64,000 nt of DNA from an uncultured Planctomycetota bacterium (lineage in GTDB: Bacteria > Planctomycetota > PLA2 > JAEUHO01), in the NCBI GenBank assembly GCA_963752285.1, contig CAVVXN010000002.1, positions 455,116-519,115 on the forward strand, in the 5' to 3' direction. The notes below the pieces were generated by a model that saw only the letters and a program-made list of their open reading frames with translations, did no database searches and had not been told where the DNA came from. Shown piece by piece: positions 4,460 through 21,695 of this stretch. Made by a program: the position numbers and the translations under genes. Every line of letters starts with the position of its first letter. Position 1 is the stretch's first letter.

Positions 4460-6568
4460 CTACACGTGGAGCCCGTGCCGGCGCTGGTGGAGCCACCAGC
4501 CCGCGCCGAGCCCCAGGACCGCGAGCTCCGCCGCGTAGAAGATCACCAGGCCGTTCATCACGCCCTGCGTGAACCCGTACGCGTGCAGGCCGATCCCGAG
4601 CAGGTTGATGCCCCACCACGAGAAGGCCACCACCCCGGCCAGCGCGACCGTGGCCATCGCGAACCCGAACGGCTTCAGGATGCCGCCGAGGCGCCCGTGG
4701 ATCATCGCGAGCTGCCACAGCACGATCATCAGCGCGCCGTTCTCCTTGGGGTCCCAGCCCCAGAAGCGGCCCCACGACTCGTTCGCCCAGATGCCGCCGA
4801 GGATCGTCCCCACCGTGGTGAGGATCAGCGCGAACCCGAGCGTGCCGTAGGTCATCCCGTTCACGACGCGGAAGAAGCCCTGGTCCCGCTTCGCCAGCCC
4901 GAACACGCGGCCGAGCACGTATACGTGCGCGAACGCCGCGGCGAGGAGGCTCGCCATGTAGCCGAGCGCGATGCACGTGACGTGCGTGGACAGCCAGAAG
5001 TTCGTGTCGAGGACCGCCACGACCTTCTTCATGTTGTCTTCGCGCGTGATCGACTCGTAGCCGTGCGCCACGAGGAGGCCCAGGAACCCCAGGAGGGGGA
5101 CGAGGGCCAGCGCGATCCGGCGCCTCGTCAGTCCCTCGACGACGAGCCCCGTCAGCGCGGCGGTCGCGGTGACGAACAGGACGGTGTCGTAGAGGTTCGT
5201 CATCGGCGGGTGCTCGCGGATCAGGCAGCGCTCCACGATGCCCCAGATGACGAAGAGCGTCGTCCCGCCCAGGAGCCCGATCAGCGTGGCGTCGTACCAC
5301 GGGATGCGCCGGCGGAAGAACCACGACACCGCGACGAACACGAAGAGCGTGAGGTAGATCCACTGCGAGTTCCCGAACGGGTTCAGCCGGAAGAGCTGGA
5401 CCTCGCGCGGGATGTTCCGGTACTTGCCGATGTCGCGCGCGAGCGCCTCCGCGTCGCGCTCGAGCGTGCGGGCCCGGTCCGTGAACGTCTTCGGGTCGCT
5501 CCGCGCCTCGTACAGGCCCTCGAAGTCCTTCAGCATGTCGAAGTGGCCCGCGACCGGGGGGAGGTCGGGACGTTCGGCCGCCTGGTAGAGGACCTCGTAC
5601 GGCGTGAGCCACGCGTCGGCCTGCATATCGAGATCGCTGCCCGCGTCCTGCGCCGCCTGGATGGCCGCCATCCGCTCCTTCGAGGGCGGGAACACCGCGA
5701 GCGCGCTGGAGCTCCCCTTCGTCTGGAGCATCTGCTCGTACCCGTTCACGGCCGCGTCGAGCTCGGGGTGCTTCGGACCGGCGGCCTGCCGAAGCGCCGT
5801 CCGCAAGGCCTCGGTGATGCGCGGTGCCGCACGGACCAGCTCCGGGAACGAGACCTCGGCCTTCCCGCCGAGCTGCTGGCGGAGGATCGGGAGGTCGGGG
5901 ACGGCCACGGGCGCGCGGGCCCAGCCGATCCACGTCGTGAACTCCTCGAACTCCATCACGGCGTGGTAGAGCGTCACGATGCCGCCCTGCACCGGGTCGC
6001 GCTGCTTCTCCTCGATCTGGCCGTACTGGCGCGCCAGCGCGACCAGCCGGGTCCGACCGGGGGCCAGGAACTCGTACGCGTAGTAGTCGCGCTTCTTCTT
6101 CTCGACGGGCTTGCCGGACTCGTCGGTGAGGTGGCTCGGGTCGAGGCCCAGCGCGGTCAGCACTTCGTCGTTGTCGATCAGGAAGCACTCGTAGCGCCGC
6201 GCGGACTCGGGGAAGAACAGGCAGTCGAGGAGGAACTCGACCGGCCCGATCCGTCGGCCGTCCGGCGTCTTCACCGAACGGTGCTGCGCCATCCGCTCGA
6301 GGGCGTACGTGGCCATCGTGTTGAGCGGCTTGACGCGCCCGCCCTCCTGCACGGGGATCTCCGCGAAGAGGTCCACGACCTCGGCGGGCCACGCCGCGGG
6401 CCACGTGTGCGCCGGGGTCGAGGAGGTCGCGGCCGGGCCCTCGGCGGCGCGGGCCGGCGCGAGGCCCAGCGTCGCCGCCGCGACGCCGGCCGCGAGCAGC
6501 CCGCCCAGCAGGGCGAGCCGTCCGAACGGCACCCGGCGGTTCGGGGCGGAGTGGGTGGTGTCCCTCAT
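4460..6568 (-). CDS. ccsA: System II cytochrome c biogenesis protein CcsA/ResC with a long N-terminal soluble extension
   Basis: In-frame ATG at 6568 of track ORF 4460..7699. It has a signal-like N-terminus and a soluble region of about 380 aa. The polytopic C-terminal half carries the haem-handling WWD box WGRFWGWDPKENG. An ATGA overlap joins it to the upstream gene. Confidence 0.85.
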   Translation of the reverse strand: MRDTTHSAPNRRVPFGRLALLGGLLAAGVAAATLGLAPARAAEGPAATSSTPAHTWPAAWPAEVVDLFAEIPVQEGGRVKPLNTMATYALERMAQHRSVKTPDGRRIGPVEFLLDCLFFPESARRYECFLIDNDEVLTALGLDPSHLTDESGKPVEKKKRDYYAYEFLAPGRTRLVALARQYGQIEEKQRDPVQGGIVTLYHAVMEFEEFTTWIGWARAPVAVPDLPILRQQLGGKAEVSFPELVRAAPRITEALRTALRQAAGPKHPELDAAVNGYEQMLQTKGSSSALAVFPPSKERMAAIQAAQDAGSDLDMQADAWLTPYEVLYQAAERPDLPPVAGHFDMLKDFEGLYEARSDPKTFTDRARTLERDAEALARDIGKYRNIPREVQLFRLNPFGNSQWIYLTLFVFVAVSWFFRRRIPWYDATLIGLLGGTTLFVIWGIVERCLIREHPPMTNLYDTVLFVTATAALTGLVVEGLTRRRIALALVPLLGFLGLLVAHGYESITREDNMKKVVAVLDTNFWLSTHVTCIALGYMASLLAAAFAHVYVLGRVFGLAKRDQGFFRVVNGMTYGTLGFALILTTVGTILGGIWANESWGRFWGWDPKENGALMIVLWQLAMIHGRLGGILKPFGFAMATVALAGVVAFSWWGINLLGIGLHAYGFTQGVMNGLVIFYAAELAVLGLGAGWWLHQRRHGLHV

Positions 6569-7923
6569 GTCGCGCTCCCAAGCTCCACGCGCACGCGATG
6601 GTGCGACTGGCGCTCCAGGTACTTCACGAGCTTCATTACGAAGTGGATCAGCATGCCGATCGCGATGATCACGCAGGAGTAGAGGGGAACCCGATCGGAG
6701 GGGTTCGACACCACGGCGAAGTTCGAGTAGAGCCGCGAGCCGGGCGGGGCGTTCTCGGGCCCCCAGCCCGACTGGTAGAGCGTGTAGCCTTCGCTCCGCA
6801 GCGGCTCGTTCATCGTGATGTGGACCTCGCGCGGCGGGGAGCCGGCCTCGGTCTTCGTCACGAACGAGGAGAACCGCCGGGGGATCATCGTGCCCGGGTG
6901 GTACTCGTGGACGAAGCGGTCGAGGTGGACCTGGAAGGGGAGGGTCCACCGACGCGGCCTCAGCTCGACCGTCCACTCCGCGTCGCCGAGCCGAACGCCG
7001 TAGGGCGCGGCCCTTGCGCTCACGAGCCCGCGGTGGGACGCACCGGTCGTACGCTCGACCAGGGTCACGCGCGCCCCGGGCGCGTTGTACAGGTTCTGGT
7101 CCTCCTCCGCCTTCGTGACCGGGGGACGCGTCTCGAGGGTCCAGCCGTCCACGGCGGAGGGGGCGGACGCGCCGACCCGCTTGACCACCGCGTTCGTCGC
7201 GTAGCCCGAGACCAGCACGTCGAAGGGGAGGTCGGGGTGCGCGAAACGCGCCGTGCCGCCCTCGTTCGTCCACGAGAAGTCCTCGGCCGGGACGACGTAC
7301 TCGCGCGCGGTGTGGTCCGGTCGGATCTCGGTGGTCGCGAGCTCCCAGCTCCGGAAGCTCACGTACTCGTCGGAGGCGTCGCCCTCGTAGAGAACCATCT
7401 GCCCGCTGGTCGAGAACCGGCTCTCGACCCAGGAGCCGACGAGCAGGATCACGATCCCGAGGTGGACGATGAACACGCCGAGCGTCGAGGTGCCCCGCCG
7501 CATGCGGAGCAGGCCGCCGACGATCAGGTTCACGAAGAGGAGCGGGAGGAGGAGCATGGCGCCTGGCAGCGGCAGCGGGATGTCGGCCCCCTGCGCGTAC
7601 CGCACGAACGGGTAGACCGAGGTCGCCAGGAGCACGCCCGCCACGAGGGCGGTCCACGGGGAGAGCGTCCGGCGGGCCCAGTGGAGCAGGACGGTCCACA
7701 CGGCCAACCCGGCCAGCACGACGCCCACCACCAGCGGGAGGAAGCCGGCGCCCCGGTGGATCACGAAGACCGAGCCGAAGTAGTGCGCCTGGACGTCGTA
7801 GATCGTGTGCGTGCCCTGGGCGATGGTGCCGAAGAGCGTCAGCAGGAGCATCAGGACGAAGAGGGCCGCGGCGAGGCGGAACGAGCCGAGGACCGCCACG
7901 AGCCGATCGAGAGGTCGTTGCAT
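6565..7923 (-). CDS. ccsB: System II cytochrome c biogenesis protein CcsB/ResB
   Basis: In-frame ATG at 7923 of track ORF 6565..9060. It has N-terminal TM helices, a large periplasmic loop and a C-terminal TM helix (CVIIAIGMLIHFVMKLV). Its stop overlaps the ccsA start at 6565-6568. Confidence 0.8.
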   Translation of the reverse strand: MQRPLDRLVAVLGSFRLAAALFVLMLLLTLFGTIAQGTHTIYDVQAHYFGSVFVIHRGAGFLPLVVGVVLAGLAVWTVLLHWARRTLSPWTALVAGVLLATSVYPFVRYAQGADIPLPLPGAMLLLPLLFVNLIVGGLLRMRRGTSTLGVFIVHLGIVILLVGSWVESRFSTSGQMVLYEGDASDEYVSFRSWELATTEIRPDHTAREYVVPAEDFSWTNEGGTARFAHPDLPFDVLVSGYATNAVVKRVGASAPSAVDGWTLETRPPVTKAEEDQNLYNAPGARVTLVERTTGASHRGLVSARAAPYGVRLGDAEWTVELRPRRWTLPFQVHLDRFVHEYHPGTMIPRRFSSFVTKTEAGSPPREVHITMNEPLRSEGYTLYQSGWGPENAPPGSRLYSNFAVVSNPSDRVPLYSCVIIAIGMLIHFVMKLVKYLERQSHHRVRVELGSAT

Positions 7924-7949
7924 GGGATTCGGATCTCCGTGGGGTCCGT

Positions 7950-9164: not shown

Positions 9165-9851
9165 GGCGGTGGCGACTCCGTTCTCCGACCCGCCGGGCGC
9201 CCGCCTCCGCCCGCGGCGCGCGCCGGGTCGGACCGCGCGGCGCGCCAGCCGGGAAGGGGAGGAGCGAGGGGGACGGAAGGCCGAGGATCGATCCGGGTCC
9301 GATGGGGCGGACCGCGCGCCGCGAGCGGCGCCAGGGGCCCGGCCGCGCGCCAGGGGCCGGATCCGGTTCGTGATGGTCCTACGCCCGTCGGAGACGAATC
9401 GCCGTACGATACCTCCGCTTCGGCCCGGGCTCCCCTCGGGAGACGACCGCCCGCCCCGCCTGGGACTGGGCCTTTGAGCCCTCCTCGCGACGCCGCACCA
9501 TCCGCTGCGCGCGGCGCCCGCGATCCGTCCCGGAGGGGGCGACCCGGGTGCCGTCGGGACCCCTCTCTCCACGGCCCCTTCCGGGCCCCACGCCCCGCCA
9601 TTTCGGGGGGGTGTGGCCCTCGGGGTGATCGTCCGATGACGCATTCTGGGTACCTACCGGAGGATCCGGGGCCGCTCCGTGCGGCCCCCGGATTGGGTCG
9701 GCCCTTCCCAAACTGCTGGTGAACAAGGGCTTGGGTAATTCGTCCGCGTGGTGCCACCCGGGGTGCGTCGCTTGCTAGGCCCTGGGGCAGGACCGGCAAA
9801 GATGAGTTCGGGGTCCGGAGGTCCGGGCCCCGGTCAGGAGCGGTACCCGGA

Positions 9852-10283
9852 GTGCTCACCCAGGCGGTCTGCCACGCAGCGAGGGCCCTCTCGTACCTCG
9901 CGTCCCACGGACGCGAGGCGGTCCTCGTCCGTGACCTGGCCGACCGGACGGGCATCCCCGGGCCGTATCTCGCAAAGATCGTGAATCAGCTCTCCCGCAA
10001 GGGCCTGGTGCAGACGCAGCGGGGTGTCGGCGGCGGCGTCGCGCCGCTCCGCGACCCCGCCACGCTGACGCTCTACGACCTCTGCGTCGCGCTCGGCGAT
10101 CCGATCGTCGAGACGCGTTGTCTGCTCGCGAACGCCACGTGCTCCGACGAGAGGGCCTGCCCCGCGCACGGCTTCTTCGTGGGGCACCGCGAGAAGGAGC
10201 TCGAGTTCCTTCGCTCGACGACGCTCGCGCACCTGGCGGCCTTCGAGGCCGACCAGGAGAGGAGGGCGAAACAGACCGCTTGA
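9852..10283 (+). CDS. Rrf2-family (IscR/NsrR-like) transcriptional regulator with a probable Fe-S ligand motif
   Basis: Track ORF with a GTG start. The wHTH is LVRDLADRTGIPGPYLAKIVNQLSRKGLVQTQRGVGGG. A C-x6-C-x5-C-x2-H motif is present (CLLANATCSDERACPAH). Confidence 0.85.
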   Translation: MLTQAVCHAARALSYLASHGREAVLVRDLADRTGIPGPYLAKIVNQLSRKGLVQTQRGVGGGVAPLRDPATLTLYDLCVALGDPIVETRCLLANATCSDERACPAHGFFVGHREKELEFLRSTTLAHLAAFEADQERRAKQTA

Positions 10284-10353
10284 TGGCCGAGAGTCCCCCT
10301 GATGGCAACCCGCAGGACGTCCGGGCTTTGGCCCGGGTCTGGAGAAGCAAATC

Positions 10354-10992
10354 ATGAATCGTCGCTGGCTCGCACCCCTCGCGCTCGGGGCCGCCGTCGT
10401 CGCGGTCTTCGCGCTGGTCGAGAGCGGCCGCTCCGCGGCCGCGGACGAAGGCGCCACGCCCGAGTTCGTCGGACAGACCGCCTGCAAGCAGTGCCACTTC
10501 AAGGAGCACAAGAGCTGGAAGAAGACGGTCCACGCGAAGGCGCTGGACCTCCTGAAGCCCGGCGAGGCGGCCGATGCCAAGAAGAAGGCCAACCTCGACC
10601 CGCAGAAGGACTACAGCAAGGATGCGACCTGCCTCCCGTGCCACACGACCGGCTACGGTCAGCCCGGCGGGTACCCGGAGGTCAAGGACGCCTGGAGCGA
10701 GGACGAGCAGAAGTGCGCGGACGTCAACGAAGGCGTCGGCTGCGAGGCCTGCCACGGCGCGGGCAGCCAGTACATCCCGTTCAAGAAAGACCACGACGGG
10801 GAGTACAAGCGGTCCGAGATCGCGAAGCTCGGCCTCAAGACGCCGGTCACCGCCGCGAACTGCACCGGCTGCCACAAGGCCGAGGGCAACCCGACGGTCG
10901 GGCCCGACTACAAGTTCGACTTCGAGACCATGAAGACGAAGCCGGAAGCCATTCACGAGCACCAGAAGCTCAAGAAGGACCACGAGGGATAG
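10354..10992 (+). CDS. Periplasmic tetrahaem c-type cytochrome (c554-like multihaem family)
   Basis: Track ORF with a signal peptide and 4 CXXCH motifs (CKQCH, CLPCH, CEACH, CTGCH). An RBS-like GGAGAAG lies upstream. Confidence 0.9.
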   Translation: MNRRWLAPLALGAAVVAVFALVESGRSAAADEGATPEFVGQTACKQCHFKEHKSWKKTVHAKALDLLKPGEAADAKKKANLDPQKDYSKDATCLPCHTTGYGQPGGYPEVKDAWSEDEQKCADVNEGVGCEACHGAGSQYIPFKKDHDGEYKRSEIAKLGLKTPVTAANCTGCHKAEGNPTVGPDYKFDFETMKTKPEAIHEHQKLKKDHEG

Positions 10993-10998
10993 CAGAAA

Positions 10999-11024
10999 GG
11001 CCGCGCGCTTCGGGGCGCGCGGCC
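10999..11024 (+). terminator. Perfect 10-bp GC hairpin just after the tetrahaem gene stop (attenuator or stabiliser candidate, no U-tract)
   Basis: GGCCGCGCGC-ttcggg-GCGCGCGGCC begins 7 nt after the TAG at 10990-10992. Confidence 0.35.
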
Positions 11025-11112
11025 CGCTCGACGAACCACGACTGACACCCGCCCGTCGGCCCCGGGCCGCGGGCGGGTCGGCCCCGAGGGTAGGGCAGGG
11101 GGGGACGCCGCC

Positions 11113-12672
11113 GTGTTTCGATCCGTCTTGGTGTCGGGCTGCCTCGTGGCGGCCTGGATCCTGGCTGGGTCCCTGGCCTGGGCCGAGCCGCCTTCGGCGG
11201 GCGCGGCGCCCGCCGCGCCCGTAGCGCCTCCGAGCGCGAGCGGGCAAAACGACGCTCCGCCCCCCGGCGCGGACGCGGCGACCGCCGCCGCCGCCGCCGG
11301 GGTCTCCGACTCTGCCGCGCCGCCTCCGCCTCCGAACCCCGCGGCGAACGCCGAGGCGAGCTACGGGGGGATCACGCCCGGCATGGTGGACCGCGCCGTG
11401 CACGCCGACGCCTTCCGAAGCGAGGCGCCGCTCTGGCAGGGCCAGGCGCGCCTGCGGTACCGGGGTCGCTTCACCTCGGAGGACGACGCCTCCGACCACG
11501 ACCTGTACGCGTACCTCAAGCTGAAGTACCGCGACGAGATGCTCCCGGGCTGGTCGGCCTCCTTCCACGGCCGGGCGACGCTCGACATCGGAAGCTTCGG
11601 GAACCGCGACGGGTTCCATCCCTTCGACTCGATCACCGACACGTACGAGCACCGGCTGAACGGGCGGATCTACCACGCGTACGTGAACTACCGAAGCCCC
11701 CGGAGCCTGGTCGAGGAAGTGCGGCTCGGGCGGCAGTACTCCGACGTCGGCGAGTTCATCCGCTACGACGGCGTCCGCGCGACGAGCCGCCCCCTCGGGT
11801 GCGGTTGGTGGCAGGTGTCGGCGTTCGGCGGGGTCCCCTCGTACCTGTTCGACGACGGGCGCGAGGGCGACTGGACCGTGGGCGGGTCCGTGAAGGGCCG
11901 CCCGTGGCGCGCCACGGGCGTCACGCTGAGCTACACGCATGCTCACGACCAGAACGCCGTCTACGGCCACGTGGACGACAACTTCGTGGACCTGACGGTG
12001 GACCAGCGGATCGGCATGAACACGCTGGTCCGGGGCACGTACCAGCAACTGAACGCCGATCCCCGGGCGCTCCGCCTGATCTTCGACACCTTCTTCCCCG
12101 CGCGGGACGTCACGGTGCGCGGTTCGTTCTACTCGGTGCTCTCCTCCCAGACCGAAGCCGTGTACGACTTCGACTACTACTACGCGGAGGCGCTCTCGCT
12201 CGAGCCGTACTGGCTCGGGACGCTGGCCGTCTCGAAGGGCCTCGGCGACCTCTTCACGGTCGAGGCGGGCGTCAACGAGCGCATGCTCTACGACCAGGCG
12301 GACGAGGGCACCTTCAACCGCGAGTTCACGGAGGTCTACGGGACCGTGGCCTCCTCCGACTGGCTGCTCCGGGACCTCCGCCTCGCGCTGACCGGCGAAT
12401 GGTGGAAGGCGAGCGGCGACCGGATATGGACCGCCACGTTCGACCTCGACTGGCGCCCCTGTCCGGCGTGGCGCCTGAGGCTCGGCACCGACTACGCCGC
12501 GTACCGGTACGACCTCTTCACGAACTCCGAGCGGGTCCACGACCTCGGAGGCTTCGTGAGGGTCACGTGGCGGCCTCGCTCCTGCTGGGAGGTCGATGTC
12601 CGGCTGCGCGTGGACGACGACGACGACGGGACCTGGACGCAGCTCGACGCCGGGCTGACGTTCGATTTCTGA
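11113..12672 (+). CDS. Outer-membrane beta-barrel protein (porin component candidate of a porin-cytochrome complex)
   Basis: Track ORF with a signal peptide (SLAWA/EP) and an Ala/Pro-rich linker of about 90 aa. Amphipathic strands rich in Y/W/R/D follow. The C-terminus DAGLTFDF ends in an aromatic residue, as is typical of BAM substrates. Confidence 0.7.
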   Translation: MFRSVLVSGCLVAAWILAGSLAWAEPPSAGAAPAAPVAPPSASGQNDAPPPGADAATAAAAAGVSDSAAPPPPPNPAANAEASYGGITPGMVDRAVHADAFRSEAPLWQGQARLRYRGRFTSEDDASDHDLYAYLKLKYRDEMLPGWSASFHGRATLDIGSFGNRDGFHPFDSITDTYEHRLNGRIYHAYVNYRSPRSLVEEVRLGRQYSDVGEFIRYDGVRATSRPLGCGWWQVSAFGGVPSYLFDDGREGDWTVGGSVKGRPWRATGVTLSYTHAHDQNAVYGHVDDNFVDLTVDQRIGMNTLVRGTYQQLNADPRALRLIFDTFFPARDVTVRGSFYSVLSSQTEAVYDFDYYYAEALSLEPYWLGTLAVSKGLGDLFTVEAGVNERMLYDQADEGTFNREFTEVYGTVASSDWLLRDLRLALTGEWWKASGDRIWTATFDLDWRPCPAWRLRLGTDYAAYRYDLFTNSERVHDLGGFVRVTWRPRSCWEVDVRLRVDDDDDGTWTQLDAGLTFDF

Positions 12673-12686
12673 GGGGGGGTGGCTCC

Positions 12687-14066
12687 ATGGCCTTCTTGCG
12701 CAATGACGGCCTGTGGCGCTGGGCCATCGTCGCCGTCGCCTTCGGCGTGGTGGGGTGCGCCGTCGCGCTGAACGCCCCGCGCCCCACGATGGTTCCGGCG
12801 AACGTGTACCGCGCGCCTGCGCCCCCGCTCCCCGCCGGTCGGGCCGTTTTGGGCCCCCGCCTTCCGCACGAGAAGCACGCGGACCTCGGCCTGGGCTGTA
12901 CCGACTGCCACGGGGTGGACGAGAAGACCGGCGAGCCCACGTACCCCAAGCCCGAGGTCTGCCTCGACTGCCACCAGGACATTCAGGACGAGGCGAAGAC
13001 GCCCCCCGAGAAGCGCGTCGAGAACCTGTTCTTCGACCCGCAGGGCCTGCCGCGGTGGAAGCGCTCGATCGTGGGCTACCCGGCGGACGTCCGTTTCTCG
13101 CACAAGACCCACGCCACGGCCAACCTCGAGTGCGCCGAGTGCCACGGCAAGATGAAGGGCACGGAGCGGGTCCAGCACAAGGTCCTCCAGAAGAGCCAGT
13201 GCCTGGCCTGCCACCAGGAGCGGGACGTCTCGCTCCAGTGCGCCATCTGCCACCGCGCGACCCGCGCCGACGTGCCCCCGCCGAGCCACCAGCCCCAGAC
13301 CGACTGGGAGGTGCTGCACGGGAAGACGGTTCTCGCGGCCGAGGCCCAGGGGACGAGTTCCTCCTGCCAGTACTGCCACGCCACGTCCTACTGCAACGAG
13401 TGCCACCAGGCCCGCAAGCCGTCGTCCCACGGCTTCGACTGGGAGCGACGTCACGGCCAGCTCGTCTGGCAGGCGGGGAGCCCCGACGCCGCGAGCTGCA
13501 CCTTCTGTCATCGCGACGCCGCGTTCTGTGACGGCTGCCACCAGAACCGGAAGCCCAGCTCCCACGACCACCTCTGGGAGAAGAGACACGGCGTGCTGGC
13601 CCGCGCCGGCGACATGAGCGGCATGGCGCGGTGCACGTTCTGCCACGACAAGCCTTCCTTCTGCGAGGACTGCCACAAGGAGAACCCGCCGCGCGACCAC
13701 ACCGACATCTTCCGGACGCGGACGCACGGCATGATGGCCTCCCTCGACCGCACGCGATGCATGGTCTGCCACCAGACCGACTTCTGCGTGCGCTGCCACG
13801 AGGACACCGCACCGCGCTCCCACCGCGGGCTCTGGGCCCACCTGCGGGACACGCACTGCATGCAGTGCCACTTCCCGATCCAGCAGGAGCCCGAGTGCGC
13901 GGTGTGCCACAAGCAGAACCCCACCCACGACACCGCGCCGGACCAGCCGCCGAGCCACACGCCCGGCCTCAACTGCCGTGCGTGTCACACGCCCGTGGGC
14001 GTGGGGGGGGCGCCGCCGTTGCGGCACGTTGACAACGGGACCCCCTGCCAGTTCTGCCACCACTAA
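12687..14066 (+). CDS. 17-haem c-type cytochrome, probable lipoprotein
   Basis: In-frame ATG at 12687 (RBS GAGGGGGGG) within ORF 11799..14066. The N-terminal helix ends in VVGC, a possible lipobox. I count 17 CXXCH motifs. Several form pairs of CxxCH-x4-5-CxxCH followed by a (K/P/A)P-x-(S/D)H tail (KPSSH, PPRDH, APRSH). Confidence 0.9.
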   Translation: MAFLRNDGLWRWAIVAVAFGVVGCAVALNAPRPTMVPANVYRAPAPPLPAGRAVLGPRLPHEKHADLGLGCTDCHGVDEKTGEPTYPKPEVCLDCHQDIQDEAKTPPEKRVENLFFDPQGLPRWKRSIVGYPADVRFSHKTHATANLECAECHGKMKGTERVQHKVLQKSQCLACHQERDVSLQCAICHRATRADVPPPSHQPQTDWEVLHGKTVLAAEAQGTSSSCQYCHATSYCNECHQARKPSSHGFDWERRHGQLVWQAGSPDAASCTFCHRDAAFCDGCHQNRKPSSHDHLWEKRHGVLARAGDMSGMARCTFCHDKPSFCEDCHKENPPRDHTDIFRTRTHGMMASLDRTRCMVCHQTDFCVRCHEDTAPRSHRGLWAHLRDTHCMQCHFPIQQEPECAVCHKQNPTHDTAPDQPPSHTPGLNCRACHTPVGVGGAPPLRHVDNGTPCQFCHH

Positions 14067-14067
14067 C

Positions 14068-14171
14068 GCCGGCGCGCTGAGGGCCCCGTTCGCGGCCCTT
14101 CCTCCTCCTTGCGTGCATTCGCACGCGGCGTCGTCGTCATGACCACTCCTTGGGGCCCTCAGCGCGCCGGC
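14068..14171. repeat. 104-bp element bounded by a perfect 20-bp inverted repeat with an inner hairpin
   Basis: GCCGGCGCGCTGAGGGCCCC (14068-14087) is the exact reverse complement of 14152-14171. The 64-nt interior contains GCGTGC-attc-GCACGC (14111-14126). The element starts 2 nt after the cytochrome stop codon. Confidence 0.8.
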
Positions 14172-14190
14172 TGCGTGCGGGCGCGGCGCG

Positions 14191-14570
14191 GGGGGCTCGC
14201 GGGCCCGCCTTCGGCGGGGCCGCATCGCGGGCTTGGTGCGGGGGGCTCGCGGGCCCGCCTTCGGCGGGGCCGCATCGCGGGCTTGGTGCGGGGGGCTTGC
14301 GGGCCCGCCTTTGGCGGGGCCGCATCGCGGGCTGTGGTGCGGGGGGCTCGCGGGCCCGCCTTTGGCGGGGCCGCATCGCGGGTGTGGTGCGGGGGGCTCG
14401 CGGGCCCGCCTTCGGCGGGGCCGCATCGCGGGGTGGGGTGGGGGGCTTGCGGGCCCGCCTTGGGCGGGGCCGCATCGCGGGGGTGGTGCGGGGGGATTGC
14501 GGGCCCGCCTTTGGCGGGGCCGCATCGCGGGGGTGGGGTGGGGGGGGCTTGCGGGACCGTTTTGGGCGCT
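14191..14570. repeat. Tandem array of 7 copies plus 1 degenerate copy of a ~50-bp GC-rich hairpin repeat
   Basis: The unit is GGGGGCTCGCGGGCCCGCCTTCGGCGGGGCCGCATCGCGGGCTTGGTGCG. Units start at 14191, 14241, 14291, 14342, 14392, 14441 and 14491, with a degenerate copy at about 14543. Units 1 and 2 are identical. Each contains an 11-bp stem, GCGGGCCCGCC/GGCGGGGCCGC, with one mismatch. Confidence 0.9.
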
Positions 14571-14638
14571 CCGGGAAAGGTTTGGGTGGGGCGTCGCGTT
14601 CGGGATCATGTCGCGAACGTCGTTCGGGAGTCGGTATC

Positions 14639-16711
14639 GTGCGGCTCGCGTGGCTCGCGTGGCTCGGTGGGGTCGTCTTGGCGCTCGGGCTCTCGCTCGG
14701 GGTGGGGGTTCGGGCGGCTCGGGCGGACGACGAGGTCACCGACCAGACGCTCGAGGACCACGAGTGCCTGTCGTGCCACGGGTTTGCGAAGAACGAGGAG
14801 AAGGCGCCCTTCGTGGACGGGCGACTGTTCCTCGTCTCGGTGCACAAGGACGTCGCTTGCACCGACTGCCATGGCGACTACGAGGGCAACCATCCCCAGA
14901 AGATGGCCCCGCCCGAGTCGTGCGCCTCGTGTCACTCCGACGAGTACGACCAGGTCAAGAAGAGCGTCCACGGCGTACGGTTCCCCGGGCCCGAGGCGCC
15001 CGAGACCTCGCCCGCCTGCGGGGCCTGCCACGGGATCCACGACGTCTTCAAGCCCACGGACCGCCGGTCGCACCTGTTCCCGCTCGAGGTCCCGTTCACC
15101 TGCGGGCGCTGCCACGCGAACGAGAAGGACGGCACGCCGACGCCCGCCTCCGAGCGGCCCACGGTCGATCAGCTCCTCTCGACGCTCTACGCCGACGACA
15201 CGCACGGCGCGGCGCTCCTCAAGGCCGGGCTGGTCACGGCGCCGACGTGTGTCACCTGCCACGGCAAGCACGACATCCGGCACCCGGAGGACCCGGCCGC
15301 GTCGGTCAACCGGATGAACGTGTCGAAGACGTGCGGCCAGTGCCACGTCGGGATCTACGAGCACTACGTCGAGAGCATCCACGGCACCACGCCCCGGGGC
15401 CATCCCGAGAACAACGCGAACAAGCGGGAGCCCGCCACCTGCACGGACTGCCACACGCCGCACGGGATCGAGCGTGTGGGGCTCCACTTCAAGCTGAAGA
15501 TCATCCAGACATGCTCGCGCTGCCACGGCGAGCGCGGCCGGACGTACAAGGGCACGTACCACGGTCACATCTCGGAGATCGGGCTGGGCGGCGTCGCGGC
15601 GTGCAGCGACTGCCACACCGCGCACGACATCCTGCCGTCCAGCGACCCGCGTTCCTCCGTGAACCCCGCCCACCGGACCGCGACGTGCGCGAAGTGCCAC
15701 GAGGGCGCGACGCCCCGGTTCGCGAGCTACCTGGTGCACGCGAACCCGGACGACCCGAAGCGCTTCCCCATCCTCTATTACGCGCGCACCATCATGCGCG
15801 ACCTGATCCTGGGCACCTGGGCCCTGTGGGGTCTCCACACGCTCCTCTGGCTGTTCCGCGCGTGGAAGGACCGGAAGAGGATTCGGGCGCACATCGAACC
15901 GGTGAGCGGGCGGTGGTACCGGCGCTGGCCCTGGAGCTACCGCGCGATCCACCTCACGCTGATCTTCTCGTTCCTGCTCCTCGCCATGACCGGCATCCCG
16001 CTCCGCTTCAGCGAGGCGCCCTGGGCGCGGACCGTGTTCGACTTCCTGGGAGGGGCTGCGAACTGCCGGCTTCTCCACCGCATTGGCGCGGCCTTGACCT
16101 TCGCGTACGCCCTGGCCTTCGTCGTGATGATCGCCGTGCGCCTGGCCCGGGGCGAGCGTGGCATCTTCCGCGGGCCCTCGTCCCTCCTCCCGCGCGTGAA
16201 GGACCTCCACGACATCCGGGCGAACCTCAAGTGGTTCGTGAAGGGCGGGCACCCTCCGGCCTTCGACCGCTGGACCTACTACGAGAAGTTCGACTTCCTC
16301 GCCGAGGTCTGGGGGGTGATGTTCATCGGGATCACGGGCCTGGTCATGTGGTTCCCGATCTTCTTCACCGACTTCCTTCCCGGCTGGGGCATCAACCTCG
16401 CCAACATCTTCCACTCGTACGAGGCGCTGCTCGCGACGACGTTCATCTTCACGGTGCACTTCTTCAACGCGAACCTGCGGCCAGGGAAGTTCCCCGTGGA
16501 CCCGATGTTCCTGCACGGCCGCATCTCCGAGGAAGAGCTGCGCCACGAGCGGCCGGCCGAGTACGAGCGCATGCGCGCCGAGGGCCGCCTCGAGAGCGAG
16601 GCCCTGCCGCCGCCCAACGAGCGCGTGACCGAGCGCGCCCACATCATGGGCATCCTGCTCATGTCGATCGGTCTCGTGCTCGTCCTCCTCATGGCCAGCA
16701 CGCTTCTCTGA
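14639..16711 (+). CDS. Fusion of an 11-haem c-type cytochrome domain and a membrane b-type cytochrome domain (CbcL-like quinol oxidoreductase candidate)
   Basis: In-frame GTG at 14639 (GGGAG about 9 nt upstream) within ORF 14150..16711. There are 11 CXXCH motifs in the first ~380 aa. About 5 TM helices with conserved His follow (WGLHTLLW, AIHLTLIF, LLHRIGAAL, FHSYEALL..TVHFF). Confidence 0.85.
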   Translation: MRLAWLAWLGGVVLALGLSLGVGVRAARADDEVTDQTLEDHECLSCHGFAKNEEKAPFVDGRLFLVSVHKDVACTDCHGDYEGNHPQKMAPPESCASCHSDEYDQVKKSVHGVRFPGPEAPETSPACGACHGIHDVFKPTDRRSHLFPLEVPFTCGRCHANEKDGTPTPASERPTVDQLLSTLYADDTHGAALLKAGLVTAPTCVTCHGKHDIRHPEDPAASVNRMNVSKTCGQCHVGIYEHYVESIHGTTPRGHPENNANKREPATCTDCHTPHGIERVGLHFKLKIIQTCSRCHGERGRTYKGTYHGHISEIGLGGVAACSDCHTAHDILPSSDPRSSVNPAHRTATCAKCHEGATPRFASYLVHANPDDPKRFPILYYARTIMRDLILGTWALWGLHTLLWLFRAWKDRKRIRAHIEPVSGRWYRRWPWSYRAIHLTLIFSFLLLAMTGIPLRFSEAPWARTVFDFLGGAANCRLLHRIGAALTFAYALAFVVMIAVRLARGERGIFRGPSSLLPRVKDLHDIRANLKWFVKGGHPPAFDRWTYYEKFDFLAEVWGVMFIGITGLVMWFPIFFTDFLPGWGINLANIFHSYEALLATTFIFTVHFFNANLRPGKFPVDPMFLHGRISEEELRHERPAEYERMRAEGRLESEALPPPNERVTERAHIMGILLMSIGLVLVLLMASTLL

Positions 16712-16878
16712 CCCGTCGCCCGGACCGGGCGCTCGGGACGGGGGACCCGGGCACCGCGGCCCGGCCGGCCTCCGCCCGAGCGCAGGCGCCCGTCCACCGT
16801 GGGGCGTGAACCGCGCGCTCTCGAATCGCCGGGAAGCGCACGTTTGCGGGTCGGCGATCGGCCATTAGGATCCTCCGA

Positions 16879-17904
16879 ATGAAGACCGTGCCCCCGCCCG
16901 CCGGCCCGGCCGACGGTGATGGTCCGCGCCGCTGGGCGGTCGTCGTGGGCACGATCGGGGGCCTCTTCCTCGGCGTCGTGTTCTTCGTCGCCGTCTGGGG
17001 GGTCCCGCCGATCCGCCTCGGCAAGGTGGGCGACCCGGAGGCGTTCGCGCAGGTCCTCCAGCTCGAGCGCCTCGTGGTGGTGCTGAGCCCCTTCGAGGCG
17101 GCGGTGTTCGCGATCGGAGTGGAGGCCGCCGTGGCCTTCTTCCTGCTGCTCGGGATCCGCCGGCTCTGGGTCCTGGTGCCCGTGACGTTGGTGGTGGTCT
17201 TCTTCATGTACCTGAACGGCCGAGCGTATCTCGCGTGGATCCAGGGCGAGAAGCTCCCCGAGATGTCGTGCGGCTGTTTCGGGAACCTCGTAGACCGCTC
17301 GCCCGCGGAGGCGTTCTGGCAGGACGCGGCCCTCCTGCTCCCCGCGCTGCTCATGGCGTACGTGGGCCGTCCCAGAGGGGAGGGCGCCTCCGCGCCTCCC
17401 GTTCGGACGGCGCTGGCGGGCCTCCTCACCATGGGCACCGTGTTCTTCGCGGCGGCCGCGCCCGAGATGAGGCTCGACGACCTTTCGACGCGGCTCCGGC
17501 CCGGAACGGACCTTCGCACCGTCTGCGCCGGCACGGGTCCGGAGCACCTGTGCCTGGCGGGCGAAGCCCTCGCGCCCGGGCTTACGGAGGGCGAACACGT
17601 CGTCGTGCTCGCCGACCTCACCGACCCGGACTTCCAGGCGGAGGTGGCGCACCGGAGCCAGGAGCTCCTCGACTTCGCCGCGCGCGAGGACGCGCCCGAC
17701 ATCCTCGTTCTGTTCAGCGGGCCCAAGGAGCAGGCGACCGCGTTCCAGTTCCAGGCCCTCGCGCCCCCGTTCCAGTACCAGGACGTGCCGGCGGCGCTGC
17801 TGAGACCCCTGCACCGTCGTCTGCCGCGTACGTTCGTGGTTCGAGACGGCGTCGTGCGCGCGACCTACTCTGGACTGCCCCCGATGGCCGATCTGGACCT
17901 GTGA
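16879..17904 (+). CDS. MauE/DoxX-like membrane protein (CGCFG motif) with a C-terminal soluble domain
   Basis: Track ORF with 4-5 TM helices and the MauE-type motif EMSCGCFGNL. The C-terminal ~150 aa may have a thioredoxin-like fold but carry no CXXC. Confidence 0.75.
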   Translation: MKTVPPPAGPADGDGPRRWAVVVGTIGGLFLGVVFFVAVWGVPPIRLGKVGDPEAFAQVLQLERLVVVLSPFEAAVFAIGVEAAVAFFLLLGIRRLWVLVPVTLVVVFFMYLNGRAYLAWIQGEKLPEMSCGCFGNLVDRSPAEAFWQDAALLLPALLMAYVGRPRGEGASAPPVRTALAGLLTMGTVFFAAAAPEMRLDDLSTRLRPGTDLRTVCAGTGPEHLCLAGEALAPGLTEGEHVVVLADLTDPDFQAEVAHRSQELLDFAAREDAPDILVLFSGPKEQATAFQFQALAPPFQYQDVPAALLRPLHRRLPRTFVVRDGVVRATYSGLPPMADLDL

Positions 17905-17927
17905 ACCCGGTCCCCCGAGGCTCCTCC

Positions 17928-18755
17928 ATGCGCCGCATCCACCCCCCGAGCCGCTGGGCGGCGATCCTCGTTCTCGCCACGCTGGCGGGGGTCCCCTCCG
18001 CGCGTGCCGGCGACGACACCGGGGACGCGCATCCGACCCTCCGCGACTTCCAGGCGACGGGGCAGTACGTCCTCTGGGCCAAGGACGAGGCGGTGGACCA
18101 GGCGACGATCTACTACTCGGAGCCCTCGGCGGCGTATTTGATCGTCACGGAGGCCTTCCCCGACGCGGTGCTGATCCTGCCGCGCACCCGTTGTGTCGAG
18201 TCGGTCAAGTCGGACGAGATGATCGAGCGGGACGACGGCGGCATCGACGTGAAGAAGGAGGCGATGCCCTGCGGTCTCGGCCGGTTCCGCCTGGAGGGAG
18301 CCGACGTGGTGTTCGACGTCGGCGACATCCCCGCCCGGCTGAAGCCGAAGCCGCCCCTGCTCGGCGGGCATCGGCGCGACGCGCTCCTCGAGCACTCACC
18401 GGAGTACGCGCGGGGCGCGAAGGCCTACAAGCCCGACATGGACGTCATCGAGCAGATGAAGAAGGCCAACAAGAAGGCCCGCATCCAGATCTTCTTCGGC
18501 TCGTGGTGTTCGTTCTGTGCCCGCTTCGTTCCCCACATCCTGCGCGTGGAGGAGGAGCTCCAGGGCACCGACCTTTCGTTCGAGTACTTCGGCCTGGAGC
18601 CGCCGCCGGCGGCGTGGGTCGGCGAGACGGCGACGAAGATGGGAATCAAGAGACTCCCCACGGGCATCATCTTCGTGGACGACAAGGAGATCGGCCGGAT
18701 CATCGGGACCGAGTGGATCCGCCCCGAGGTCGCGCTGGCGCGCTTCCTCCGCTGA
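17928..18755 (+). CDS. Secreted thioredoxin-family protein (WCSFC active site) with an unknown N-terminal domain
   Basis: In-frame ATG at 17928 of ORF 17235..18755. Signal peptide is AAILVLATLAGVPSARA. The C-terminus reads IQIFFGSWCSFCARFVPHI...LPTGIIFVDDKEIGRIIG. Confidence 0.8.
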   Translation: MRRIHPPSRWAAILVLATLAGVPSARAGDDTGDAHPTLRDFQATGQYVLWAKDEAVDQATIYYSEPSAAYLIVTEAFPDAVLILPRTRCVESVKSDEMIERDDGGIDVKKEAMPCGLGRFRLEGADVVFDVGDIPARLKPKPPLLGGHRRDALLEHSPEYARGAKAYKPDMDVIEQMKKANKKARIQIFFGSWCSFCARFVPHILRVEEELQGTDLSFEYFGLEPPPAAWVGETATKMGIKRLPTGIIFVDDKEIGRIIGTEWIRPEVALARFLR

Positions 18756-18832
18756 CGCGGACCCGCGCCGCGACCCGGGCGTCGCCGCATCCCGGCCCAC
18801 GCCGGATCCGCCCGCGCGGCGCACCTACGAGA

Positions 18833-18863
18833 GCGCCCCGCGCGGCGGGGCCGCGCGGGGCGC
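18833..18863. terminator. Perfect 14-bp GC hairpin between convergent genes (bidirectional terminator candidate)
   Basis: GCGCCCCGCGCGGC-ggg-GCCGCGCGGGGCGC lies between the stops at 18755 (+) and 18883 (-). Confidence 0.45.
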
Positions 18864-18882
18864 GAGGGGGAGACTCCGAACG

Positions 18883-21411
18883 CTAGGGCAGCGCGAAGCT
18901 CGCGCCCGACAGCGCGCCGAGCGTGTGGGTGAACACGTCCGAGACGAAGCCCGGGTTGTGGAAGGACTTGCTGCGGTCCGCCTCGAGCATGGAGAAGTTC
19001 CAGCCCGCCTTCGCGAGCACCACCTCGGGGTTCCCGGCGAAGAGGCCGTTCAGGTAGAGCGAGCCCATCGGGAGATCGAGCGGGTCGAGGATCGTCGTGC
19101 CGCCGTGGAGCTGCACGTGGTAGATCCAGGAGCCGCCGATCTGGATGTTCATGCCCTGCCGCCCGTGCGACTCGGCGAACTCCAACCCCCCGACGACCGA
19201 CGTGGAGTCGATCGTGGCGGCGAGCGGGGTCGCCTCGTCGAGCGTCGAGCCGGTGAGGGCGATGCGGTATCCCGCACCGACCAGCGACTGGATCTCGTCC
19301 GCGAGCTTGGACTCGATGGTGAGCTTCAGGTCCTCGATGCTGGTCTCGAACTGCTTCTCGAGCGTGCCGCCGTCGAAGGCGCCGTGGCAGTTCGAGCAGA
19401 TCGAGACGTCGGCGGTGAAGCCGTGGTTGGCGCCCGCGCCGCTCAGGCTGTAGTCCGCCGGGGGCGGGCTCATCTGGACGTGGCAGGTGACGCAGGTGTC
19501 CTTCAGGAAGCCGTGGGGGCCGCGGCTCGGCGTCGAGACGAAGAACATGTTCTGGCCGAAGAGCACGTCCGTCTGCGGGCCCTGGTGGGGCGCCCGGTCG
19601 GGCGAGTCGAGGCCCGTCACGTCGTTCCTCAGACCGCGCCGGCCGTTGTGGCACTCCATGCACATCGCGCCCTTGCCGACGTTCGTCGCGCTGAACCCCG
19701 ACTCGAGGTTCATCGCGTTGTCCTCGACGCGCATGTGCGCGTCGTTCGCGTCGCCGGAGACCGTTCCGACGTTGTGCGGGTCGTGGCAGACCACGCACGT
19801 GATCGGGTGGACCGTATCGGCCGTCGGCGCGGCATCGACCACCCCGTCCGGCAGCCAGTCGAGGAAGCCCTGTGCGGAGTGGCACTTCGCGCAGCTCTTG
19901 TTGGTGCCCTCAGCGATGGCGACCTCGTAGTTGCCGTGCGCGCTGTTCTCCCACTGCTGGAAGCGGCCGTGCCGCGGCGGTTCGCCGTGGCAGGAGCCGC
20001 ACACGTCCGACGCCATGGAAACGCGGTACACGTCGTTGCCCATGTGGCTGCTGCCCTGGCCGTTCGGGCCGTGGCAGTTCTCACACTGGATGTTGCCCTT
20101 CTGGGCGACCGTGGGCCACGTCGAGAGCACCTTGGCCCAGTTCCCCATGTCCATCGTCATGTGGCCACCGGGGAACATGCCGGCGTAGAAGTCGGCGTAC
20201 TGCGGCGTGTCGTCCAGCCCGTCGTTCGTCGCGTCGAGGTCGAAGCCCACGGTGTGGCACGCGAAGCAGCTGCTGCTGTAGTGGTCGCTCGTGTTCAGGT
20301 TGTCCTTGAAGATCGAGGCGTGCCCGGTCTTGGCCCAGTCCGTGAATTTCTCGGGGAAGATGCCGGAGTGACAGGACATCGTGCAGGACATCGTCGGGTT
20401 GCCGGCGGCGTCCATGCCGTCGATCCCGCCGACCCACTTGCCGGCGTAGACGTCCAGGTTGACCGTCGTGCTCGTCGCGAGGTCCGTCACCGCGAGGGTG
20501 TACTTCCCCGTGACGTCGGGCACGAACCAGGGGTACCGGGTCGTGGCGTCGGAGAGCGTCGCCGTGGAGGTCCCCGGCGCCGCCTGGATCGTCCAGTCGT
20601 ACGACGCCTGGGTCTTCCCGCCGAGCAGGACCGGCACGCCGACCGGCACGTTCTGGAGGCCCGTCGTCCAGGCGACGAAGGGCAGCTTCGCGGCGACCGC
20701 GGCCGTCGCCTTGTACGTGCCGCTCGTCGTCGTCACGGTGCACTGGAGGTCCACCGCCGCGCCGAGGTCGGCGACCTCGGGGTTGAGCGGGACCACCCGC
20801 CAGCGCTCGAGCTGCTCGATGCTGCCCACGAGGGCGGTCTTGTAGGCCGCGATCGCGGCCAGCGTCACGTCCGTCGTCGCCGCGGTCGGCGCCGTGATCG
20901 TCGCCGTGGCGCCCGTGCCCGTCTGCGACCAGGAGTAGCCGCTGACCGTCGATCCGTCGTAGATCGTCGGCGTGGCCGTCAGCGCGAACGACGCCCCGGG
21001 AGCGGGGCCCGTCGGCGCGCCCGTGATCTTCACGGTCACGTGCGCCGTCGGCATGAGGTCGAGGTTGCACGTGGTCGTGCCGGCTGCGAGGACGCTCACG
21101 CTGTCGGCGCCCGCCGTGAACCCGGTCGGCGCGCAGGCGAGTCCGTAGCTGCCCACCGGCAGCGTCGCGGTGTAGTGACCGGTCGCGTCGGTCACGGGGT
21201 TCACACCCGCCACGGCGGGCGTGAGGGTAACGGGCGCCCCTGCGAGGGGAGCGCCGCTCATGGCGTTGGTCACCTGACCGGTCAGCGTGCCGGTGCTCGC
21301 GCCGGGGAGGCCGGGCGCGCCGTTGCTGCCGGAACCGCAGGCGGCCAACGACAGGCAGAGGAAGGTGGCGAGCAGCCACCCGCCTCGATGGAAGCGAGTC
21401 GCAGGCGTCAT
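18883..21411 (-). CDS. 842-aa multihaem lipoprotein cytochrome (8 CXXCH + 1 CX3CH) with N-terminal carboxypeptidase-regulatory/Ig-like domains
   Basis: In-frame ATG at 21411 (RBS AGGAG) of ORF 18883..21588, with lipobox SLAAC. GTLTGQVTNAMSGAPLAGAPVTLTP...TDATGHYTATLPVGSY matches a CarboxypepD_reg-like domain. Haem motifs are CTMSCH, CFACH, CENCH, CGSCH, CAKCH, CVVCH, CMECH, CVTCH and CSNCH. Confidence 0.85.
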   Translation of the reverse strand: MTPATRFHRGGWLLATFLCLSLAACGSGSNGAPGLPGASTGTLTGQVTNAMSGAPLAGAPVTLTPAVAGVNPVTDATGHYTATLPVGSYGLACAPTGFTAGADSVSVLAAGTTTCNLDLMPTAHVTVKITGAPTGPAPGASFALTATPTIYDGSTVSGYSWSQTGTGATATITAPTAATTDVTLAAIAAYKTALVGSIEQLERWRVVPLNPEVADLGAAVDLQCTVTTTSGTYKATAAVAAKLPFVAWTTGLQNVPVGVPVLLGGKTQASYDWTIQAAPGTSTATLSDATTRYPWFVPDVTGKYTLAVTDLATSTTVNLDVYAGKWVGGIDGMDAAGNPTMSCTMSCHSGIFPEKFTDWAKTGHASIFKDNLNTSDHYSSSCFACHTVGFDLDATNDGLDDTPQYADFYAGMFPGGHMTMDMGNWAKVLSTWPTVAQKGNIQCENCHGPNGQGSSHMGNDVYRVSMASDVCGSCHGEPPRHGRFQQWENSAHGNYEVAIAEGTNKSCAKCHSAQGFLDWLPDGVVDAAPTADTVHPITCVVCHDPHNVGTVSGDANDAHMRVEDNAMNLESGFSATNVGKGAMCMECHNGRRGLRNDVTGLDSPDRAPHQGPQTDVLFGQNMFFVSTPSRGPHGFLKDTCVTCHVQMSPPPADYSLSGAGANHGFTADVSICSNCHGAFDGGTLEKQFETSIEDLKLTIESKLADEIQSLVGAGYRIALTGSTLDEATPLAATIDSTSVVGGLEFAESHGRQGMNIQIGGSWIYHVQLHGGTTILDPLDLPMGSLYLNGLFAGNPEVVLAKAGWNFSMLEADRSKSFHNPGFVSDVFTHTLGALSGASFALP

Positions 21412-21695
21412 GCTGATCTCCTGGTACCGATGTGCAGGTCGGGGCGCGGCGGGAACGGGAATTCCGCCCCCGACCCGCGTGATCCGCCGACGGAGCCTGG
21501 CGGCGACGACGTGGCGGCAGAGCGCGTCGAGACTGCGGGCGCGGTCGTCCTGGTGTCTCGGGTGCGGAGCAAGCGCCTTGTCGTTCATCCGACGGGCCTC
21601 GTCTCAGCGAATCGTCCCTCTTGGGGCGGAGTGTATTCGTGCCGTGGCGTCTTCCCAATCTTTGCGACGGTGTTCCGTGCGGAATGCGTTGTTGA

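Follow-up and report, generated by a model that had tools for sequence, protein, structure and literature searches.

The stretch of DNA analysed here (hereafter the window) comprises 64,000 nucleotides (nt) from an uncultured Planctomycetota bacterium (contig CAVVXN010000002.1, positions 455,116 to 519,115 of the forward strand). The gene under study, at positions 14639-16711 of the window, encodes a protein of 690 amino acids (aa) in which a periplasmic domain with eleven c-type haem motifs is fused to a membrane domain resembling the dihaem b-type cytochromes. The genome is 4.64 Mb in size with 73% G+C, consists of 5 contigs and is estimated to be 89% complete, and the named proteins nearest to the 690-aa protein are from Planctomycetota. 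The gene and the parts of its product are the following.

14639..16711, + strand: gene for the 11-haem c / dihaem b fusion protein (690 aa), CbcL/MtrH/MtoC family, 11-haem subclass
14639..14725, + strand: signal peptide, residues 1-29, with the cut between ARA and DDE, from reading of the sequence and from an N-terminal helix (residues 2-28) in the AlphaFold2 (AF2) model
14726..15766, + strand: multihaem c domain, residues 30-376, from CXXCH motifs and Pfam PF09699, PF14522 and PF14537
15767..16708, + strand: six-helix membrane domain, residues 377-690, from PF01292, a profile match to 1KQF chain C (1KQF_C) and Foldseek

The reading frame starts with a GTG codon at 14639, with a GGGAG box 8 nt upstream, and ends with a TGA stop codon at 16709-16711. 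The G+C content at third codon positions (GC3) is 0.91 in a window of about 72% G+C. The protein has the Sec signal and the periplasmic domain with multiple CXXCH motifs by which members of the CbcL/MtrH/MtoC family are recognised; in NCBIfam it had below-threshold matches only, to decahaem proteins of the DmsE type and to gamma subunits of formate dehydrogenase. An AF2 model obtained with 25 family members as input had a mean predicted local distance difference test score (pLDDT) of 84.2 and a predicted template modelling score (pTM) of 0.70.

Haem ligands of the periplasmic and membrane domains

The periplasmic domain contains exactly 11 CXXCH motifs, which is the number reported in the first-pass annotation. 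They start at residues 43, 74, 95, 127, 155, 204, 232, 268, 292, 322 and 350 (nt 14765, 14858, 14921, 15017, 15101, 15248, 15332, 15440, 15512, 15602 and 15686) and include 22 of the 23 cysteines of the protein. The Pfam families matched in the N-terminal half are Cytochrome_C7, Cytochrom_c3_2 and Paired_CXXCH_1. The motifs are laid out as haem 1 followed by five doubled-CXXCH units (haems 2-3, 4-5, 6-7, 8-9 and 10-11), the paired motifs of each unit being separated by 21-28 residues. Eleven histidines outside the motifs (H69, H85, H111, H134, H189, H211, H248, H275, H308, H329 and H367) were conserved in 47/47 eleven-haem relatives, H85 being counted as conserved within two alignment columns, and these would provide one candidate distal ligand for each c haem. 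One conserved distal histidine per haem agrees with what was reported for the periplasmic domain of CbcL, in which all nine haems are low-spin and bis-His coordinated (PMC9129911). A catalytic role in nitrite or hydroxylamine reduction was also considered and was rejected, given that no CXXCK or otherwise odd haem motif is present and that a conserved distal histidine accompanies every haem.

The membrane domain matched the Pfam family PF01292 (Ni_hydr_CYTB) over residues 429-608 with a score of 37.3 bits, which is above the gathering cut-off of 30.1 bits. The AF2 model contains six transmembrane (TM) helices (residues 377-419, 432-456, 472-503, 547-571, 582-612 and 661-689), arranged as an FdnI-like four-helix dihaem b core (TM1-TM4) with a linker helix (TM0) and a C-terminal helix (TM5). 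The domain had been described beforehand as about five TM helices with histidines of the b type; the b-type assignment was upheld by the profile match, whereas the number of helices had to be corrected to six.

The candidate b-haem ligands are H438 (nt 15950), H480 (16076), H592 (16412) and H607 (16457). When a profile of eight b domains was compared with FdnI (1KQF_C), a match was obtained at E 8.6e-5, in which H18, H57, H155 and H169 of FdnI fell on H438, H480, H592 and H607, respectively. These four FdnI residues are what we take to be the ligands of the two b haems in the 1KQF structure. A phmmer search of the PDB with the b domain alone gave no match, and the profile of eight b domains was required to reach FdnI. 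In the Foldseek search with the AF2 model, FdnI (1KQF_C) was the sole significant match among solved structures (E 2.6e-4, FdnI-normalised template modelling score (TMt) 0.79), the runner-up being the cytochrome b of hydrogenase-1 with non-significant E-values. All four histidines were invariant in a 25-member alignment covering the 11-, 15-, 19- and 23-haem classes and also in the 47 eleven-haem members. In the modelled helices H438 and H607 lie near the cytoplasmic ends of TM1 and TM4, and H480 and H592 near the periplasmic ends of TM2 and TM4, which agrees with the arrangement in FdnI. The proposed fusion of a multihaem c domain to a dihaem b domain of the FdnI/HydC type was thus supported by PF01292, by the 1KQF_C profile and by Foldseek. 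Given the b-type profile match and the correctly placed histidine pairs, the objection that the first-pass annotation had itself foreseen, namely a C-terminal domain lacking one or the other, does not apply.

A fifth membrane histidine, H400 (nt 15836-15838), is located in TM0, a helix that is absent from FdnI, and is invariant in all classes including the CbcL-type proteins.

Comparison with CbcL, MtoC/MtrH and FdnI

CbcL of Geobacter sulfurreducens (GSU0274) is a protein of 619 aa with six TM segments and CX2CH motifs at 34, 57, 82, 105, 129, 158, 186, 229 and 257 (PMC6295460), its membrane part being predicted to form six TM helices (PMC6295460, PMC9129911). It is a menaquinol oxidase that is needed for acceptors at or below -0.10 V and shows a potential-dependent shut-off (PMC5322298; bioRxiv 10.1101/2022.08.31.506072). 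Residues V205 and F525 of CbcL govern this shut-off. A family-profile search of 301 Desulfobacterota genomes returned many open reading frames (ORFs) of about 615-645 aa, and eight of these were taken as CbcL-type comparators. All eight carry nine motifs (e.g. at 35, 58, 83, 106, 130, 159, 187, 230 and 258), and all five membrane histidines (H400, H438, H480, H592 and H607) are conserved in them. The 690-aa protein is 33-39% identical to the nine-haem CbcL-type proteins when aligned end to end, with 26-32% identity in the c domain and 37-44% in the membrane domain, and this homology over the whole length bore out the earlier suggestion that the protein is CbcL-like. A hidden Markov model (HMM) of the eleven-haem class matched the CbcL-type proteins as one domain of about 500 bits that starts shortly ahead of haem 10 and continues as far as the C-terminus.

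The likeness to CbcL thus comprises a signal peptide, a multihaem c domain with predicted bis-His ligation and a membrane domain of six helices whose dihaem b core is FdnI/HydC-like, and the sequence comparisons supported the view that the 690-aa protein is CbcL-like by both homology and architecture. The two differ in that CbcL has nine haems and the present protein eleven, a difference of one doubled-CXXCH unit, and in their position in the family tree, where the nine-haem CbcL proteins form a clade of their own (98% support in the Shimodaira-Hasegawa-like approximate likelihood ratio test, SH-aLRT) and the 690-aa protein is found in another clade with 100% support. With eleven motifs and a position outside the Desulfuromonadia CbcL clade, the protein is not CbcL sensu stricto. 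We also tried to map the two haems missing in CbcL, but no single mapping was retained, as three alignments pointed to haems 7 and 9, to haems 4 and 5, and to haems 1 and 2 or a mix (hmmalign). The disagreement arises because the c domain is internally repetitive, and only haems 10-11 and the membrane domain are robustly collinear between the 690-aa protein and the CbcL-type proteins. To our knowledge, CbcL has no adjoining porin-cytochrome cluster. In some species CbcL genes are adjacent to other cytochrome genes, and only to these (PMC6295460).

The same fusion architecture is found in the MtoC/MtrH proteins (Dechloromonas aromatica Daro_1404, Gallionella Galf_2006 and Rhodoferax Rfer_4073). 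The genes for MtoC/MtrH in Betaproteobacteria that oxidise Fe(II) or reduce Fe(III) lie within clusters for outer-membrane conduits, mtoAB or mtrAB (PMC6295460), and in this respect the 690-aa protein is similar, since it is also encoded beside an outer-membrane barrel and multihaem cytochromes. It differs from MtoC/MtrH in its number of haems, as these proteins have nine (or eight) and are associated with conduits of the MtrAB type. MtoC/MtrH-type proteins from Burkholderiales genomes, recognised by the published pattern and having 8-9 motifs, were 31-36% identical to the 690-aa protein; their collinearity with it starts ahead of haem 6 and continues to the C-terminus, and they have no counterpart of haems 4-5.

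With FdnI (1KQF chain C) and HyaC (hydrogenase-1, 4GD3) the protein shares the four-helix dihaem b core in which TM1 and TM2 each carry one histidine and TM4 carries two. In contrast to FdnI, which is a stand-alone subunit fed by an Fe-S subunit, the core is here fused to a multihaem c domain and is extended by TM0, with its invariant H400, and by an extra C-terminal helix.

Haem number in the CbcL/MtrH/MtoC family

The first-pass annotation had presented the eleven haems as a noteworthy variant of CbcL, a view that was not sustained. Homologues of CbcL/MtrH/MtoC with 3-23 CX2CH motifs have been found in 15 phyla, and about 12 eleven-haem members were already tabulated in Table S2 of Zhong & Shi 2018 (PMC6295460), including Opitutus terrae Oter_2603, Lacunisphaera limnophila Verru16b_03342, Planctomycetes bacterium ADurb.Bin126 BWX88_04189 and proteins of Dadabacteria and Lentisphaerae. 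Oter_2603 has CX2CH motifs at 56, 93, 114, 144, 172, 216, 244, 274, 299, 333 and 361 (PMC6295460), and eleven-haem proteins of this type resemble the 690-aa protein in motif spacing, in having six TM segments and in length (about 650-760 aa). Eleven-haem relatives from individual species of Verrucomicrobiota, Acidobacteriota, Planctomycetota and others could be aligned over the full length at about 40% identity. Compared with the eleven-haem proteins of that list, the 690-aa protein belongs to a separate, well-supported sub-clade together with metagenomic proteins at 50-65% identity, and this sub-clade has its own conserved gene neighbourhood that includes a rare barrel family. No studied eleven-haem homologue from Planctomycetota, Verrucomicrobiota or Geothrix turned up in a literature search, beyond the listing of Zhong & Shi 2018.

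More than 1,100 relatives were found in a large protein collection, and among the best 120 of these, 23 had 11 haems and 84 had 19. Relatives are encoded by at least 586 species in a collection where each species is represented by a single genome. Of the 80 top-scoring loci, each from another species, the eleven-haem class was the commonest (36 loci), followed by proteins with 19 haems (32 loci), the rest having 9, 10, 13, 14, 18, 21 or 23; Geobacter was absent from these 80 loci. The main haem-number classes observed were 11, 15, 19 and 23, those of 9, 13 and 21 being smaller, and the 19-haem proteins have the 11-haem layout preceded by eight N-terminal haems.

An unrooted tree was constructed from the shared C-terminal 400 residues, leaving out the MtoC/MtrH-type proteins. 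The 690-aa protein was placed in an eleven-haem clade (SH-aLRT 100%) in which a 15-haem pair was nested and which was sister to a Planctomycetaceae protein, and the nine-haem CbcL clade was located among other eleven-haem groups. Judging from these sequences, haem number in the family is changed by doubled-CXXCH units, and eleven haems look like the common and widespread state to which the nine haems of Geobacter, and of the Desulfuromonadia CbcL proteins in general, are a seemingly derived exception.

Both split and fused forms of the family exist: in several Desulfobacterota genomes the c and b domains are encoded by two adjacent genes (e.g. G022:C159:98-1860 and G154:C23:178254-180046).

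Gene neighbourhood

The genes and other features surrounding the fusion gene in the window are listed below.

4460..7699, - strand: CcsA-like cytochrome c assembly (System II) ORF (PF01578, E 2.6e-19), divergent from the cluster
9852..10283, + strand: Rrf2-family transcriptional regulator, first gene of the cluster (PF02082, E 1.2e-24), syntenic in loci L083 and L085
10354..10992, + strand: tetrahaem cytochrome c554-like protein, 212 aa, 4 CXXCH, signal peptide, candidate periplasmic carrier (PF13435, E 7e-21)
11113..12672, + strand: predicted outer-membrane beta-barrel, 519 aa, about 24 strands, porin-like part of the conduit (AF2 and Foldseek)
12687..14066, + strand: lipoprotein, 459 aa, 17 CXXCH, lipobox VVGC, candidate outer-face or in-barrel cytochrome (motif count; syntenic homologues in L083, L085 and L004)
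14177..14559, no strand: hairpin-repeat array, 7.6 copies of a 50-bp unit, within the 572-bp gap upstream of the fusion gene
16879..17904, + strand: MauE-family membrane protein, 341 aa, directly downstream of the fusion gene (PF07291, E 2.8e-10), syntenic in relatives
18883..21588, - strand: large multihaem cytochrome, 8 CXXCH, CarboxypepD_reg/PKD-like N-terminal domains, convergent with the cluster; homologue co-directional with the CbcL-like gene in L004
21867..24467, - strand: large decahaem cytochrome with a chitobiase-C-like domain, convergent with the cluster; homologue in the L004 operon

The 519-aa protein has a Pro/Ala-rich, disordered N-terminal linker of about 100 residues and a C-terminal Phe. 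In its AF2 model residues 110-518 form about 24 antiparallel strands with strand pLDDT values mostly above 85, and among the 303 Foldseek matches at E<=0.001 the best 50 were all outer-membrane barrels (AlgE, FimD and TonB-dependent transporters). A Pfam search with the barrel gave no match, and only 7 homologues were found in a collection of 5.8 billion proteins, all of them beside multihaem cytochrome genes where the context was known. The barrel gene adjoins the genes for the tetrahaem cytochrome with its signal peptide and the 17-haem cytochrome with its lipobox, so that the porin-cytochrome setting proposed in the first-pass annotation, of the functional class that includes MtrCAB and the OmaB/OmbB/OmcB type of Geobacter, was recovered at the level of the model. 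The two large cytochromes have N-terminal domains of surface type. The cytochromes of the cluster matched generic multihaem Pfam families only, and no direct comparison with MtrB or OmbB was made. About 14 genes in the genome encode proteins with at least three CXXCH motifs, and about 5 of them are located in this cluster.

The order Rrf2 regulator, c554-like cytochrome, barrel, multihaem lipoprotein, CbcL-like protein and MauE is also that of L083 (65% identity) and L085 (60% identity), which are the nearest relatives represented by long contigs and which both have ResB/CcsA at the matching place. In a more distant locus, L004 from Planctomycetaceae (about 42% identity), homologues of six window genes are found at 1737-11938 in one co-directional string with the order c554-like cytochrome, CbcL-like protein, barrel, multihaem lipoprotein and both large cytochromes. 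Conservation of gene order down to 60-65% identity, together with a string on one strand at about 42% identity, argues for a functional unit.

Some further features of these loci were noted. The 459-aa lipoprotein has about one haem per 27 residues, with many back-to-back CXXCH pairs 9-13 residues apart. The ORF at 4460-7699 encodes 1079 aa with the CcsA-type domain at the C-terminal end and may represent two genes or a fusion. Genes for an NrfB-like cytochrome, a 4Fe-4S protein and an NrfD-type membrane subunit are located between the lipoprotein gene and the CbcL-like gene in L085 (7194-9922), and a second, shorter fusion of a multihaem c domain and PF01292 (497 aa) is encoded downstream. 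Each 50-bp unit of the array in front of the fusion gene contains a GC-rich hairpin with a TTCG/TTTG loop. The core of the repeat gave 48 matches on five contigs, in about nine arrays of 2-8 copies and as single copies, and given these genome-wide arrays it represents a lineage-wide, REP-like (repetitive extragenic palindromic) element that is not specific to this locus. A scan for promoters and terminators in the region 9600-18900 gave nothing above the shuffled expectation.

Proposed function and alternative explanations

We propose that the 690-aa protein is an inner-membrane quinol:cytochrome c oxidoreductase of the CbcL/MtrH/MtoC family, in the common eleven-haem form, that feeds the local outer-membrane conduit, and we assign this interpretation a probability of about 0.7. 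The architecture, the conservation of the ligands, the CbcL-type homology and the conserved synteny are established by the comparisons above. As regards the quinol substrate, the partners, the direction of electron flow and the acceptor, which we infer, the most likely function by analogy is oxidation of menaquinol with outward feeding of the conduit, and the conserved synteny makes it plausible that the protein serves this conduit as a dedicated quinol dehydrogenase.

In such a pathway (mena)quinol would bind near the cytoplasmic-side b haem, by analogy with FdnI, and within the FdnI-like core one b haem would be ligated by H438 and H607 on the cytoplasmic side and the other by H480 and H592 on the periplasmic side. 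Electrons would then cross the membrane to the chain of eleven predicted bis-His c haems in the periplasm and could be passed on to the tetrahaem cytochrome, from there to the 24-strand barrel with the 17-haem lipoprotein and then to the large surface cytochromes, so that a bacterium living in soil or wetland would carry out extracellular electron transfer. In the topology described for CbcL, quinol oxidation releases its protons on the cytoplasmic side, and this step would therefore conserve no energy, which suits acceptors of low potential (bioRxiv 10.1101/2022.08.31.506072).

Several observations weigh against this interpretation. Members of the family occur in Fe(III) reducers and Fe(II) oxidisers alike (PMC6295460), so that the sequence does not reveal which way the electrons flow. 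The CbcL comparators are Desulfobacterota proteins recognised by the published Desulfuromonadia CbcL motif pattern and do not include GSU0274 itself. The fusion gene is parted from the upstream cytochrome genes by the 572-bp gap with the REP-like hairpin array. The barrel family was found in only 4 of 83 family loci, which would restrict the link between the 690-aa protein and a conduit to one clade. The matches from a search of sequencing runs were all partial and all to DNA, from metagenomes of soil and wetland, with none to RNA. Finally, although the 690-aa protein is the only strong PF01292 or FdnI-type b cytochrome in the 4.64-Mb genome, a second quinol module is present elsewhere (G000:C5:1604187-1608436; L097 888-5137), in which a cytochrome b/b6 (PF00033) is accompanied by two multihaem proteins, one of 509 aa with 10 CXXCH motifs and the other, of the NapC/NirT type, of 483 aa with 5 such motifs.

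The foremost alternative, which we nevertheless regard as unlikely, is that electrons flow in the reverse direction and that the protein acts as a quinone reductase, the conduit carrying electrons to the quinone pool from a donor outside the cell, such as Fe(II), as has been proposed for MtoC. Family members are found in Fe(II) oxidisers, where they are clustered with mtoAB, and no sequence feature separating quinol oxidation from quinone reduction was found by Zhong & Shi 2018 (PMC6295460). The collinearity of the Burkholderiales MtoC/MtrH-type proteins with the 690-aa protein from before haem 6, at 31-36% identity, can be read in the same direction, but an identity of only 31-36% is also an argument against it. 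The position of the 690-aa protein outside the nine-haem CbcL clade was likewise counted against reverse flow. Moreover, no homologues of MtoA/MtoB (MtrAB-type) were recognised in the cluster by Pfam, which gave no match for the barrel, and the large surface cytochromes, whose domains are carbohydrate-binding-like and PKD-like, are similar to reductases that face outwards in metal-reducing bacteria. Even together, these points (tree, MtoAB, surface cytochromes) are not decisive.

A general quinol dehydrogenase similar to CymA, feeding several periplasmic reductases from within what would be a mere cytochrome island by the c maturation genes, appears quite unlikely. It would account for the gap upstream of the fusion gene, the adjacent cytochrome c assembly genes, the scarcity of the barrel among family loci and the NrfBCD-like module inserted beside the gene in L085. 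However, the gene order from the regulator to MauE is kept at 60-65% identity and the same parts are found in one co-directional string at about 42% identity, both of which favour the proposed role in feeding the local conduit. The idea that the gene is a decayed or non-functional copy can hardly be credited: the reading frame is intact with a GC3 of 0.91, the 11 CXXCH motifs, 11 distal histidines and 5 membrane histidines are all conserved and the AF2 model is confident, and a non-functional copy is thus contradicted by the intact frame and the conserved ligands.

A broader reading, to which we give somewhat less than an even chance, combines the family history with the role at this locus. 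Eleven haems would be ancestral in the family, with the nine-haem CbcL proteins being reduced and the 15-, 19- and 23-haem forms having arisen by addition of doubled-CXXCH units, and the 690-aa protein would be the inner-membrane entry to a self-contained, previously undescribed conduit, with its rare barrel and 17-haem lipoprotein, for extracellular electron transfer in soil and wetland Planctomycetota.

Implications

The 690-aa protein is a normal member of a catalogued and very widespread subclass of the CbcL/MtrH/MtoC family, for which the additional haems are ordinary. The difference between eleven and nine haems was already present in the literature and opens no long-standing question, while the cluster around the fusion gene is conserved and of some interest. 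Relatives are currently named 'cytochrome c3 family protein' or 'formate dehydrogenase cytochrome b subunit', and a suitable annotation would be CbcL/MtrH/MtoC-family multihaem c / dihaem b quinol:cytochrome oxidoreductase. For the modelling of CbcL, the comparison suggests that CbcL is an unusual, shortened form and that haem number changes in steps of doubled-CXXCH units. For the organism itself, an uncultured bacterium of soil or wetland whose genome is high in GC and encodes few multihaem cytochromes (about 14), the gene and its neighbours are a marker that points to extracellular electron transfer.

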